Shown here: in pieces, positions 14,103-17,552 of the stretch
Position numbering within the stretch: position 1 is the first letter of the stretch
Layout of the letters: each line of letters begins with the position of its first letter
DNA from: a virus
Taxonomy: Duplodnaviria > Caudoviricetes
DNA: 64,000 nt
Direction: 5' to 3' (one strand)
Virus record (IMG/VR): IMGVR_UViG_3300020455_000015
Coordinates: 2,023-66,022 of that record
Position numbers and translations under genes: made by a program
The notes under the pieces: model-generated
The model's database searches: none
Told to the model about the DNA's origin: nothing
What the model saw: the letters and a program-made list of their open reading frames with translations, nothing else

Positions 14103-15566
14103 TTATTTTTTGAGTGAAATGTTGATGATGTCATAATTAAAGTTTTCTTCATTGTAGATTTTAATTCTTTCTACAAGATGATTCAAAGTGTAGTTTCTTC
14201 TTGATTTGTATGTAATGTCATCTGCAATATCATACAAAGTGGCTTTAACTTTGTTGTTACCTTTTCTCAGGACTCTTCCAATTGATTGTAGATTCCGTAT
14301 TCGAGATTTAGACGGTGATGCAAAAATAACGTTATGTAAATTTTTAATGTTAATTCCTGTGGAGAAAGTCCCATAAGATGCAACTATTATAGCATTAATT
14401 TCGGATTCAGTGATTGACCGAACATTTTCACGATTTTCAGCATCCACTCCTCCGTGGACAAAAAAAGTTTGACGCTGTTCGAGTACATTACTATTTATTA
14501 AATCATAAAGAACTCTTCCATGGCCCTCAACTCTTGAATATAAAATCAATGTATTTCCCTTTAGATCTAATGTAAGATTTCTTATGAATTTATTTCTCTG
14601 TTCATTATTGATAATGTATTGAACTTCATCCTCAAATGTTTCAAACTTTTGTGGAGAATGTTTTAGTAGTAATATATTAATATCAAGTTTTGCAACATGA
14701 CCTTTGGTCATGAGGTCTTTAGTTCCTATAATTTTATATGAAGGGCCAAATAATCCTTCTAAAACCCACTTATGTGTTTGCGTTCCATCAAGTGTGCCAG
14801 TAAATCCAAATCTATATTTGGCCTTGTGAAGTTTTGTCATTATAGATATAAGTGATTTACTTTTGAACTGGTGCGCTTCATCCCCAATTACAACAGAGAA
14901 TCTCTCAAAATACTTTCTGGGGAGTTTATAGATTGATTGCCAAGTAGTAATTATGACCTGAGAGTCCGTCTCTCTTTCTTTACCAGCGTATATCTTATGG
15001 CAAAATGAACCTACATCCCACCCATAATCCGCAAAATCTTTATACATTTGCTCTACTAGCGAAGTCGTCGGAACAACTATCAGAGTATTTTGCTTCCGTT
15101 CAACGTAATATCTCACAATCGAATATATCATCAGAGACTTTCCTGAAGCAGTTGGGGATATCAACAACTTTCTATTATGTCTTAAAGCGTCGTATACTCC
15201 CTCTACTTGATAATCACGAGGAACATACTTGCAAATAGATTTCATATAATCTTTAACACCCTCATATGAGATATGCTCATTGACTTCAAAAGGTGTGCCA
15301 AAGAATTTATTATCTACAAACTCGTAAGTATATTCGTGATCGTCACAAAACTTTTGTATCTTATCCAGTAGTCCAACGTAGATTTCTCCGTTCTTTACGT
15401 TGAATAGACGGATCTTACCATCCCAATACTTATTACGGTATTGAGGCATGAATTTAGCTCCCGGAATCTCAAAGGTAAATTGATCAGATAACTCGTAGTA
15501 TACATGCGGATCTGATTCTACCTGAAGGAAAACTTCATTCTTTTTTGATATACTCAAATGAGACAT
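14103..15566 (-). CDS. uvsW: RNA-DNA and DNA-DNA helicase UvsW
   Basis: SPTASGKS, DEAH, TGT, QSIGRVLR; start MSHL at 15566. Confidence 0.97.
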   Translation of the reverse strand: MSHLSISKKNEVFLQVESDPHVYYELSDQFTFEIPGAKFMPQYRNKYWDGKIRLFNVKNGEIYVGLLDKIQKFCDDHEYTYEFVDNKFFGTPFEVNEHISYEGVKDYMKSICKYVPRDYQVEGVYDALRHNRKLLISPTASGKSLMIYSIVRYYVERKQNTLIVVPTTSLVEQMYKDFADYGWDVGSFCHKIYAGKERETDSQVIITTWQSIYKLPRKYFERFSVVIGDEAHQFKSKSLISIMTKLHKAKYRFGFTGTLDGTQTHKWVLEGLFGPSYKIIGTKDLMTKGHVAKLDINILLLKHSPQKFETFEDEVQYIINNEQRNKFIRNLTLDLKGNTLILYSRVEGHGRVLYDLINSNVLEQRQTFFVHGGVDAENRENVRSITESEINAIIVASYGTFSTGINIKNLHNVIFASPSKSRIRNLQSIGRVLRKGNNKVKATLYDIADDITYKSRRNYTLNHLVERIKIYNEENFNYDIINISLKK

Positions 15567-15588
15567 AAAATAGTGTTCATTCACAGAT

Positions 15589-15636: not shown

Positions 15637-16440
15637 ATGACAAGTCTCATTGACCCGAAAAAGTATACAAAGACCGTTGACCTATTAAGGTCATTTTTTT
15701 TGTCTAAAGGTTTTTTTGAAGTTCATACTCAGAACCGTTTAAGTATACTTGCTGCATGCGAAGATCCTGAAACTGTAGCAACATATGAATATAATGGACA
15801 AGTTTGGCCACTTCCACAAACAGGACAGATGTGGTTGGAATATGAATTACTCAAGAATCCAGAAGCACCCGGTTTCTTTTGTGTCTCCACCTCATATCGT
15901 CAAGAACCAAATCCAGTAGAAGGAAGACATGAAGTAATCTTCCCAATGTTTGAGTTTGAAATGCACGGTGGTGTGGAAGAACTTGAGAAAATGGAGATGG
16001 AATTATGCAAGTATGTAGGTGTTCCTTTACAAGAATATGATGTTAAAAAATATGAGCATTGGGCAGGAGCATTTAAGACCAAAGAATTAGATCATGATCA
16101 TGAGAAATCAATTGGTCGTGGTATGATTACACATTTCCCTGAGTGGACATCACCATTCTGGAATATGGCAAGAAATGATGATGGTGAAACCAGTAAGAAG
16201 ATTGATGTAATCTTAAATGGTATGGAAACTATTGGTTCTGCGGAACGTAGCACCGATAAGAAACAGATGCGTGATACATTCCATACTATCTCTGATGGGC
16301 AATATGCTGACTTACTTTACAAATTATTTGGTAAGGAAAGAGTTGAGAAAGAACTAGAAGAGTTCCTTGAGTTTGATTTCTTTCCTAGAAGTGGAGGAGG
16401 AATCGGTGTAACACGTATCATGCAAGCAATCCCTGATTAA
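15637..16440 (+). CDS. Class IIb (Asp/Asn-type) aminoacyl-tRNA synthetase-like catalytic domain lacking the anticodon-binding OB fold
   Basis: Motif 1 RSFFLSKGFFEVHT; LPQTGQMWLE; motif 2 SYRQEPNPVEGRHEVIFPMFEFE; IDVILNGMETIGSAER; motif 3 PRSGGGIGVTRI; only 267 aa, motif 1 near residue 18. Confidence 0.9.
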   Translation: MTSLIDPKKYTKTVDLLRSFFLSKGFFEVHTQNRLSILAACEDPETVATYEYNGQVWPLPQTGQMWLEYELLKNPEAPGFFCVSTSYRQEPNPVEGRHEVIFPMFEFEMHGGVEELEKMEMELCKYVGVPLQEYDVKKYEHWAGAFKTKELDHDHEKSIGRGMITHFPEWTSPFWNMARNDDGETSKKIDVILNGMETIGSAERSTDKKQMRDTFHTISDGQYADLLYKLFGKERVEKELEEFLEFDFFPRSGGGIGVTRIMQAIPD

Positions 16441-16452
16441 CTTCAGGGTCAA

Positions 16453-16548
16453 TGTAGAGTGGTGAAATTGGTAAACACAGGAGACTGTTTCTCTCCCGAT
16501 CAATCATTAGCTTGGTAGGTCTTGCACGTTCGAGTCGTGCCTCTACAG
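16453..16548 (+). tRNA. Non-canonical tRNA with GTT (Asn) anticodon and long variable arm; CCA not encoded
   Basis: Acceptor TGTAGAG/CTCTACA plus G73; D arm GTG-AAATTGGTAAA-CAC; anticodon arm GGAGA-CTGTTTC-TCTCC; 27-nt variable arm; T arm GCACG-TTCGAGT-CGTGC. Confidence 0.9.
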
Positions 16549-16566
16549 TTTAAAAAATATATTTAT

Positions 16567-16995
16567 TTAAAATCCAGATTGAAATTTCTGCCACTCAATG
16601 GCATTCTTAATTTGGTATGTACGACCAGATATATTTCTGATTATCTCTTCTAAAAATTTAAGAGTCACATCATAATATCTAATCTTCATGTCACTCTGAT
16701 TAAGTCTTTCATCAGCATCTAGATGCCTCTGTATTGCGTCCTTTTCTCTAACTTTGTATGGAAATGGGTCTTCGGCATATACTTCTGCAGTTGCCTTTCC
16801 TGTGTAGTAATTATGTCTCTCTAATTTAATTTTATTATATGTCTCTCTTGCTTTCTCACGCATCAAACTAATCGTATTATAGATTGTATAATACTTTGAA
16901 TGTAATTGAGGTATTTTTAATGACTCATCATGTAGATTATCAGGATCAATGACAGCATCACGCTCCCACATCTCCTGAATTTTTTCAAGATTCAT
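16567..16995 (-). CDS. uvsY: Recombination mediator UvsY
   Basis: IPQLHSKY...YYTGKA...RTYQIKNAIEWQKF; T4-like synteny. Confidence 0.93.
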   Translation of the reverse strand: MNLEKIQEMWERDAVIDPDNLHDESLKIPQLHSKYYTIYNTISLMREKARETYNKIKLERHNYYTGKATAEVYAEDPFPYKVREKDAIQRHLDADERLNQSDMKIRYYDVTLKFLEEIIRNISGRTYQIKNAIEWQKFQSGF

Positions 16996-17552
16996 AAAGG
17001 TTTGCCAGTCGTATCAGTTAGTGTGTATATAGTATAGCGGAAAACAGCCTGTGCTGTAAAGTATTGTATATCTGATTCTGTAGCATCAAATGTTAGAGAT
17101 GTTAAGGATACGGGAAATAAGTCTTGAAATTTTACTATAGCAACATCACGATAATTACTATTCAAGATACGTAGAGATCCATCACAAAATTGTTCTTCCA
17201 AATCACGAATACCATCAGAATCTGTAGTTTTATTGACAAATTGTTGTGGTGTTTCTGGAAAACCTAATCCTGTTAACCAATTATGAACTGCTGCATAATT
17301 TTCCATATTCTCATCAACTAAGAATCGAATATCTAAATCTCCATAAGTTAATTTTTCACCGGGGACATCAATAAACTTTAAGTATGATGGTTGTTGAAAT
17401 GTTCCTAATGTGATATCTGGTATTGAAGCAGAGTTGCAGAAGAAATCTATCTTGGGAAATTTAGATAAAATAAATTTAAACCCAATCGGTGAAAGATAAT
17501 TACGATTTGCAATTTGACCTGCTAAAGGGCCACGATTTGTAGATGATGTCAT
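16992..17552 (-). CDS. g3: Tail tube terminator / tail completion protein gp3
   Basis: NYLSPIGFKF, PGEKLTYGDLDIRFLVDENMENY, FPVSL. Confidence 0.88.
   Translation of the reverse strand: MTSSTNRGPLAGQIANRNYLSPIGFKFILSKFPKIDFFCNSASIPDITLGTFQQPSYLKFIDVPGEKLTYGDLDIRFLVDENMENYAAVHNWLTGLGFPETPQQFVNKTTDSDGIRDLEEQFCDGSLRILNSNYRDVAIVKFQDLFPVSLTSLTFDATESDIQYFTAQAVFRYTIYTLTDTTGKPL

Follow-up and report, generated by a model that had tools for sequence, protein, structure and literature searches.

Which amino acid does a tRNA carry, and what is it for, when its body is of the leucine type, its acceptor end and anticodon are those of asparagine, and position 37 of its anticodon loop is a pyrimidine? The question is raised by a 96-nucleotide (nt) gene in a stretch of 64,000 nt (positions 2,023–66,022 of the virus record IMGVR_UViG_3300020455_000015; hereafter the window). 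The window is a fragment of a T4-like cyanomyophage whose record comprises 66,022 bases and is 31% complete by CheckV. An earlier note, made from the letters of the window, had recognized a tRNA with Asn features, and that part of its interpretation stands. It missed the strongest clue to function, a gene for a protein resembling asparaginyl-tRNA synthetase (AsnRS) that ends 12 nt upstream, and it left the four functions it offered unranked. Here we describe a family of such tRNAs in cyanophages, in which a Leu-type scaffold carries an Asn identity set, and we propose that tRNA and upstream gene may form a mobile charging cassette.

The tRNA gene comprises the following parts.

16453–16548, plus strand: tRNA gene, 96 nt, with a Leu-type class II body, U1-A72, G73 and anticodon GUU
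16453–16459 / 16541–16547, plus strand: acceptor stem TGTAGAG/CTCTACA, 7 base pairs (bp), read from the sequence
16462–16478, plus strand: D arm, a 3-bp stem GTG/CAC with an 11-nt loop, AAATTGGTAAA, of the Leu type
16485–16491, plus strand: 7-nt anticodon loop CTGTTTC, with anticodon GTT at 16487–16489 and the pyrimidine 'U37' at 16490
16497–16523, plus strand: variable region, 27 nt, comprising an arm of 9 'pairs' with one A.A mismatch, a 6-nt loop and two unpaired T on the 3' side
16524–16540, plus strand: T arm GCACG-TTCGAGT-CGTGC, from the sequence, Rfam and covariation
16548, plus strand: G73, the discriminator, read from the sequence

The earlier note had described perfect stems, a 3-bp D stem, a 27-nt arm and a CT-GTT-TC loop, and the sequence, the Rfam model RF00005 and RNAfold bear out every detail. 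The variable arm pairs as GATC/GGTC, an A.A mismatch and ATCA/TGGT around the loop TTAGCT; the anticodon stem GGAGA/TCTCC has 5 bp, all paired, and U8 and G9 are present. The gene encodes no CCA, with TTT directly after G73. RF00005 matches over its whole length and above its threshold (44.1 bits against a gathering score of 29; E = 3.8e-8; model positions 1–71 of 71), and its alignment gives a canonical 7-nt anticodon loop. The minimum-energy fold from RNAfold is a five-helix cloverleaf that includes the variable arm, with an unremarkable folding energy (z = −1.61; 15 of 200 shuffles were as stable). Canonical elongator loops combine U33 with a purine at position 37; this loop has U33, but position 37 is U.

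ARAGORN, a check suggested in the earlier note, called this tRNA and no other across the 64-kb window, but left its isotype ambiguous. Its label, 'tRNA-?(Asn|Lys)(gttt)', comes with an 8-nt loop and a mismatched stem that we regard as a drawing artefact, as the RF00005 alignment and covariation favor a 7-nt loop. An RF00005 scan of the window's own record returned 0 matches despite the tRNA being present, and was not used for counts of tRNAs.

Does this architecture belong to one genome or to a family? An IMG/VR search with the protein encoded upstream brought up at least 596 related stretches, and we retained the best 80. Our survey set comprised 84 sources, the window plus L001–L083 (three isolate loci and 80 contigs), and a custom cloverleaf parser was used to find tRNAs downstream of the enzyme gene. 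The parser placed a tRNA directly 3' of the gene in 78 of the 84 sources; five of the six misses are contig ends (within 95 nt of the gene) and one, L078, is a true absence. ARAGORN on its own called a downstream tRNA in 75 of the 84. Without any filter, all 78 genuine parser hits carry GTT. Parser hits at L011 1026–1113 and L054 3718–3798 were dropped, as they are without GTT, U1 and G73 and were not called by ARAGORN. Two sets of distinct sequences underlie what follows: alignment A1, with 49 sequences and GTT as its sole filter, and a tally of 56 that adds loci from a later search and is filtered on T1, G73 and GTT. The 56 come from cyanomyophage contigs and the isolates P-SSM2, P-SSM5 and P-SSM7.

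Pairing in this family is nearly perfect and is maintained through compensatory change. In A1, 99.2% of the 1231 cells of a five-helix model are paired, and 21 of 29 pairs show changes on both sides, distributed over all five helices. None of 500 column shuffles matched the observed pairing or covariation, and sliding the partner by 1–3 columns as a control lowered pairing to 40–47%. The T stem (helix 5) is 100% paired with double changes in 4 of its 5 pairs. The variable arm (helix 4) is 96% paired, with double changes in 4 pairs and its outer four pairs conserved. U1-A72, G73 and U8-G9 are each present in 49 of 49 sequences, as are G18G19, TTC and G53-C61, and the anticodon loop has 7 nt in every copy. 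In 9 loci G73 is immediately followed by CCA, and this anchors the register of the acceptor end.

The anticodon loop and variable region are where the family departs from convention. Among the 56 distinct sequences, 55 have U at position 37 and one has C, and none has a purine there. At position 33, U (44 sequences) prevails over C (10), A (one) and G (one); C and U are both found at position 32, and A, C and G at position 38. The variable region spans 14–29 nt. CAGTTTA loops were seen in 4 further loci from a scan with the tRNA motif. Few features of tRNAs are as constant as U33 and a purine at position 37, and the dispensability of U33 in this family, established by comparing its members, is an unexpected result.

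The earlier note had proposed checking homologues for U37 and for pairing of the variable arm, and both are kept. This conservation and covariation across homologues argue that U37 is no sequencing error and the arm no intron-like insert. Judged by its relatives, the tRNA is real, conserved and structurally sound, neither decayed nor misread, as the earlier note had supposed from its intact stems, and its gene is under purifying selection. A 79-nt variant occurs at about L267 3060–3140 and, identically, in L315. It has the arm shrunk to an unpaired loop of ~9 nt, a weak anticodon stem, the loop TTGTTTG, and CCA encoded after G73.

Where did the parts of this tRNA come from? When the window tRNA was searched by BLAST against 50,697 phage records, matches were confined to positions 5–34 and occurred in 70 phage records; of the 40 matching records listed, 32 are annotated as tRNA-Leu and 8 are unannotated. 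A covariance model built from the family (R1) gave its top scores elsewhere to tRNA-Leu of two huge phages (62.5, 57.4 and 52.8 bits), with tRNA-Ser lower at 40.1. The features held in common with bacterial and phage tRNA-Leu are U8-G9, a 3-bp D stem of the GCG/CGC type, a D loop of the form (G/A)AA(Y)(N)GGUA(A/G)A, and a variable arm of the form UGUCC-loop-GGAC-GU. In this comparison, the D arm and variable arm are Leu-like nearly base for base, and the tRNA body derives from tRNA-Leu. The long paired arm, 3-bp D stem and Leu-type D loop of a class II tRNA-Leu are all there, but A73 and a Leu anticodon are not: the family has G73, U1-A72, anticodon GUU and U37 instead. The earlier note had likened the D arm to those of Leu, Ser and Tyr tRNAs; BLAST and R1 support the Leu likeness, but that the body is specifically of the Leu type had escaped it.

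The acceptor end and anticodon tell a different story. The canonical cyanomyophage tRNA-Asn(GUU) of S-CAM7 (L175 1199–1271) shares U1-A72, G73, GUU and a 7-nt loop starting CUGUU. It differs in being a class I tRNA of 73 nt whose variable loop has 5 nt and whose D stem has 4 bp, with A37 in the loop CUGUUAA; its gene belongs to a tRNA cluster and has no synthetase-like neighbor. Measured against bacterial-type tRNA-Asn, the window tRNA has GUU, G73 and U1-A72, but in place of the class I body and A37 it has a 27-nt variable region, a 3-bp D stem and U37. The earlier note was therefore right to see Asn acceptor identity on a class II body. With Leu-type D and variable arms joined to an Asn-type acceptor end and anticodon, the tRNA amounts, by this dissection, to an Asn identity set on a Leu-type scaffold, in which U has taken the place of A37.

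That cyanophages carry tRNA-Asn genes is well established (PMC3152331 and PMC11726456), and the former places tRNA-Asn among the six tRNAs that cyanomyoviruses use most. P-SSM7 also encodes a tRNA with the Leu anticodon UAA (L001 2897–2969; also L065 and L070) that is only 73 nt long and has a short variable loop. The same P-SSM7-type genomes contain a 'Leu' tRNA without the long arm and an 'Asn' tRNA with it.

Immediately upstream of the tRNA lie two further features.

15637–16440, plus strand: class IIb aminoacyl-tRNA synthetase catalytic core, AsnRS-like, 267 amino acids (aa), from Pfam PF00152, an AlphaFold model and VIA
16441–16452, plus strand: spacer of 12 nt from the stop codon to tRNA position 1, read from the sequence

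The only Pfam domain of the 267-aa protein, hereafter the mini-synthetase, is tRNA-synt_2 (PF00152; 1.4e-14; residues 11–264), the catalytic core shared by the class II enzymes for Asp, Lys and Asn. All NCBIfam models for AsnRS, AspRS, LysRS, EpmA and AsnA score far below their cut-offs: TIGR00457 (asnS) gives 17.5 bits against 342.6, NF003037 gives 17.4 against 414, and NF005055, for the archaeal AsnA-like protein AS-AR, gives 16.8 against 389. PHROG 29758 lists the protein as 'unknown function', GenBank names the gene 'tRNA ligase' in P-SSM2, P-SSM5 and P-SSM7, and protein atlas matches are confined to viral 'tRNA ligase' clusters. The family is large: the candidates scored form at least 8000 clusters at 90% identity, and at 50% identity 684 representatives remain, 175 of them with E ≤ 1e-30; most are 260–300 aa long. 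Single-protein queries with the distant members P0218, P0263 and P0130 gave no match in IMG/VR.

Structure and motifs place this protein nearest to AsnRS. An AlphaFold (AF2) model from 60 diverse members has a predicted local distance difference test score (pLDDT) of 96.0 and a predicted template modeling score (pTM) of 0.92. Its nearest structures by VIA are AsnRS catalytic domains (Z 26.3–25.4; for the top match, root-mean-square deviation 2.5 Å over ~247 aligned residues at 21% identity), followed by archaeal/eukaryal AspRS (25.2–24.1), archaeal asparagine synthetase A (23.6–22.9), GenX/EpmA and LysRS; the Z gaps between AsnRS, AspRS and AS-AR neighbors are small. The best matches of the family profile in the Protein Data Bank are AsnRS (2e-14), AspRS (3e-12) and AS-AR (3e-7). 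In 10 of 10 diverse members, the motif-2 and motif-3 residues R88, E90, R97, H98, E197, R204, G253, G254 and R260 are invariant. The family motif QTGQMxLE aligns with QSSQLYLE of AsnRS and QSPQLYKQ of AspRS, and its invariant L-E after QxxQ (L67-E68) is of the AsnRS type, where AspRS has K-Q. We take this dipeptide to separate Asn from Asp specificity. Combining these observations, the upstream protein is, as far as its sequence and modeled fold can tell, an intact adenylate-forming core of class IIb that most resembles AsnRS.

What it lacks is the domain that reads anticodons. AsnRS of the archaeal/eukaryal class IIb type shares the catalytic fold, motifs 2 and 3 and the L-E after QxxQ, but has an N-terminal anticodon-binding domain with an oligonucleotide-binding (OB) fold and is ~430 aa long. 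Pfam finds no anticodon-binding OB fold in the 267-aa protein. A search for PF01336 in 4 phage records, among them the complete genomes of P-SSM2, P-SSM7 and G001, gave 0 hits (14 of 14 control genomes were positive), and the domain is on record in 0 of 15 longer relatives. Stand-alone catalytic cores of similar size are otherwise represented by AS-AR (3P8T), E. coli AsnA, EpmA/GenX and HisZ. We know of no AS-AR, AsnA, EpmA/GenX or HisZ encoded beside a dedicated tRNA.

How tightly are the two genes linked? Scanning IMG/VR with a motif of the tRNA alone gave at least 119 stretches, of which 80 loci were taken. The enzyme gene ends no more than 400 nt upstream in 66 of 66 testable tRNA copies, among which none is without it; the remaining loci are 9 that were untestable owing to a nearby contig end and 5 chance matches in coding DNA that are not tRNAs. 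In relatives of the window pair the tRNA starts ~8–220 nt after the enzyme gene. The setting of the pair varies. In the window it sits between helicase and uvsY genes, in P-SSM7 it follows gp23 and three tRNAs beside uvsY/gp3, and in P-SSM2 and P-SSM5 it lies in a variable region between small open reading frames (ORFs) and a lipase gene. These different genomic contexts imply that the cassette moves as a unit. Dependence appears one-sided: from its distribution, the tRNA looks dependent on the enzyme, and the enzyme not on the tRNA.

RNA-library contigs from two studies (X15 and X20) join the last 75 nt of the gene to the 5' part of a P-SSM2-type tRNA, and one contig spans window positions 16470–16556 with the variable arm present. 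These contigs allow no reading of ends, CCA, charging or strand and may reflect DNA carry-over; the contiguity of gene and tRNA hints at co-transcription and nothing further.

Both genes of the pair are already annotated in GenBank, as 'tRNA ligase' and 'tRNA-Asn' in P-SSM7 and P-SSM5. P-SSM2 also has the pair, with the tRNA at L002 3842–3927 (NC_006883.2 162083–162168), directly after the 'tRNA ligase' gene. The RefSeq tRNA-Asn of P-SSM2 (PSSM2_199) is annotated at 164094–164179, inside the coding sequence PSSM2_205 and misplaced by ~2 kb; these coordinates were apparently carried over from a different version of the record. In Sullivan et al. 2010 (PMC3037559) the gene figures solely as table row T4-GC 194, listed for 2 of 16 cyanophages.

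The genes that flank the pair in the window are on the opposite strand.

14103–15584, minus strand: helicase gene (PHROGs)
16567–16995, minus strand: UvsY-like gene (PHROGs)
16992–17552, minus strand: tail-tube/gp3-like gene (PHROGs)

A weak terminator-like hairpin, TGCCA-loop-TGGCA followed by a T-rich run (16589–16603, plus strand), starts 41 nt past the tRNA and falls within the 3' end of the opposite-strand uvsY-like gene. A promoter scan was uninformative, with 6 promoter-like sites against 4.9 expected.

What, then, might the pair do? The reading we favor, at a probability of roughly 45%, is that of a mobile mini-AsnRS/tRNA(Asn) cassette of T4-like cyanophages in which charging proceeds via the acceptor end and the tRNA works without N6-threonylcarbamoyladenosine (t6A). 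The mini-enzyme would activate Asn and load the tRNA by reading only U1-A72 and G73, ignoring the anticodon, and the charged tRNA would read AAC and AAU codons during infection. Class IIb cores can charge acceptor helices, as yeast AspRS does with minihelices. In this proposal the mini-enzyme would both bind and aminoacylate the tRNA. The modification t6A is made on A37, and U37 would remove the need for it from the host; loops without U33 would also lose the UGU element for insertion of queuosine at position 34. The phage would gain a decoder with little need of the host modification machinery and with a loop unlike that of host tRNA-Asn. Host enzymes or nucleases that recognize the native tRNA-Asn loop may act poorly on such a loop, although it is speculative that this would shield the tRNA from anticodon nucleases. 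The Leu-type body and long arm would be an inherited scaffold, possibly offering extra grip or contacts, or orthogonality.

Several observations weigh against this proposal. To our knowledge all domain-less class II paralogues (AsnA, AS-AR, EpmA/GenX and HisZ) do not charge tRNA, which makes the prior unfavorable. The invariant GUU, U1-A72 and G73 are also what host AsnRS, or a non-discriminating AspRS with GatCAB, would need. A pyrimidine at 37 and a base other than U at 33 are expected to weaken ordinary decoding. Moreover, the enzyme family is common without a nearby tRNA, in other phages and in giant viruses, and some of its relatives are fused to enzymes of metabolism.

These points feed the most serious alternative, which we consider unlikely but which survives best: the enzyme would be an AsnA-like amide ligase that does not act on tRNA, either an asparagine synthetase or another ATP-dependent ligase working on an aspartate-derived acid. 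Host AsnRS, or a non-discriminating AspRS plus GatCAB, would then charge the tRNA, and the cassette would still boost Asn decoding. The missing anticodon-binding domain fits such an enzyme, as does the company of known domain-less class IIb paralogues that are not tRNA synthetases, and AS-AR and GenX are indeed among its structural neighbors (Z 23.6–22.9). All invariant positions of the tRNA are those of the canonical phage tRNA-Asn. A truncated AsnA-like ORF of an algal virus has likewise been suggested not to be a synthetase (PMC5127864).

The distribution of the enzyme favors this alternative further. The complete cyanophage genome G001 (the record of L078; 235,761 bases, CheckV 100%) has the enzyme gene but no tRNA, with 0 R1 hits; its mini-synthetase gene runs directly into the uvsY-like gene. 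Two huge phages have the enzyme without a family tRNA nearby. In one 735-kb uncultured phage (LR756501.1; L084 3937–5499) a 48% identical homologue is followed by a 520-aa RimK-like ATP-grasp protein and preceded by a split family-B DNA polymerase, with no tRNA within 3 kb. A second phage clade (L094–L173; 80 loci, ~48% identical to the window protein) shows a tRNA in 0 of 60 loci by ARAGORN, and R1 over all 80 loci gave 3 matches, all in L164 ~1 kb upstream of the gene. No partner recurs consistently beside the enzyme across the 80 loci of this clade, where DnaK/Hsp70-like genes are found in 23 and polyphosphate-kinase-2-like genes in 7. Giant-virus contigs, too, carry the enzyme without the tRNA.

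Fusions point in the same direction. Of 15 longer relatives, 8 have both DHO_dh (PF01180), the dihydroorotate dehydrogenase domain, and tRNA-synt_2 on record, one more (P0283) lists DHO_dh only, and one joins tRNA-synt_2 to OMPdecase.

P0271–P0277, P0123, P0283 and P0149, and L177 2877–4741: fused relatives, 43–57% identical to the mini-synthetase

In P0149 the core is followed by orotidine monophosphate (OMP) decarboxylase (PF00215). The sequences most closely related to the fused form lie on giant-virus (GVMAG) contigs. Judged by domain content, two independent fusions to enzymes of one pathway suggest that at least some members of the family act in metabolism. Among the cyanophages themselves, DHO_dh is absent from 4 of 4 records, and PF00156 (Pribosyltran) gives only hits below its cut-off, in 3 of the 4. 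These hits are ORFs of 182–214 aa scoring 19–23 bits against 26.3 (G001 123192–123551, NC_015290.1 134440–134793 and NC_006883.2 45228–45392), and such an ORF occurs in all three complete cyanophage genomes that have the mini-synthetase.

Three observations pull back from an AsnA-like ligase toward a charging cassette. First, all 66 testable tRNA copies have the enzyme, whereas ordinary phage tRNA-Asn genes sit in clusters without it. Second, the family profile lies nearer to AsnRS than to AS-AR, by 2e-14 against 3e-7. Third, an AsnA-like ligase leaves the Leu-type body, U37 and the free position 33 unexplained.

Those same loop features raise another alternative, which we rate as doubtful and well behind the ligase: the tRNA would not be a normal decoder, and G34-U35-U36-Y37 would be a site of protein recognition or modification. 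The mini-enzyme or a host factor might act on the loop, for instance by aminoacylating a loop nucleotide, as GluQ-RS does with tRNA-Asp; or the tRNA might be an amino-acid donor off the ribosome, or a decoy for anticodon nucleases. In either of the first two cases it would be a virus-made, tRNA-like cofactor on a Leu scaffold. Four loop bases in a row are invariant or nearly so while 32, 33 and 38 drift, position 37 is never a purine, and position 33, otherwise a near-universal U in elongators, varies (with CAGTTTA in the 4 further loci). The partner enzyme, moreover, is without the domain that normally reads the anticodon. But the tRNA retains everything that the L-shape, EF-Tu and the ribosome require (G18G19, TTC and G53-C61, with a 7-nt loop throughout), and the anticodon agrees with the apparent amino acid of the enzyme, as faithful decoding predicts. 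Neither in the window nor in the isolate loci did we find a candidate transferase or nuclease adjoining the cassette, and the enzyme family also exists without the tRNA.

Recoding is far less probable still. Here host LeuRS or SerRS would charge the class II body and Asn codons would be read as Leu or Ser, an option the earlier note had entertained for both amino acids. The body is of the Leu type, and LeuRS and SerRS ignore the anticodon. Yet G73 is present in every copy and A73 is the main determinant for LeuRS, which makes charging with Leu unlikely. For Ser nothing was found in support: an arm that goes down to 14 nt, and is lost in the 79-nt variant, is unfit for the arm dependence of SerRS. 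The acceptor end is also that of canonical tRNA-Asn, and the partner enzyme is AsnRS-like. Finally, a decaying pseudogene, an assembly error or a recombination scar hitch-hiking with a cargo gene has next to no probability, even if cyanophage tRNA genes co-occur with non-syntenic regions (PMC3037559): three isolates and many independent assemblies have yielded 56 distinct sequences, pairing stands at 99.2%, and every one of the five helices shows compensatory changes.

Is anything like this pair known? Some phage tRNAs with anticodon loops unlike those of the host, proposed to escape tRNA-cleaving defenses, likewise set a non-standard loop around a standard anticodon, but are otherwise ordinary and host-charged. 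In Streptomyces, ProRSx/tRNA-ProA likewise places an odd tRNA beside a synthetase paralogue that ignores or is unable to read the anticodon. Allo-tRNAs (PMC7609411) are similarly odd tRNAs paired with a synthetase paralogue. Both ProRSx/tRNA-ProA and the allo-tRNA pairs differ from the cyanophage pair in that they mismatch identity and anticodon and lead to mistranslation, whereas here Asn and GUU agree. In searches of full-text literature, which did not extend to supplementary files or subscription journals, we found no description of a class II tRNA of Asn identity, of a conserved pyrimidine at position 37, or of coupling to an AsnRS-like gene without an anticodon domain.

An ocean-abundant natural family with a pyrimidine at 37, a drifting position 33 and strict selection elsewhere offers a direct test of the need for these positions. 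P-SSM2, P-SSM7 and their Prochlorococcus hosts are in culture, which makes the system experimentally tractable. If the enzyme does not charge the tRNA, the dihydroorotate dehydrogenase and OMP decarboxylase fusions point to an unrecognized viral metabolic enzyme. If it does, it would be the first class IIb synthetase without an anticodon domain to have a dedicated tRNA, and the two would form a naturally compact, anticodon-blind pair of interest for genetic-code engineering. It would also mean that phages can import a whole charging route, beyond tRNAs alone.

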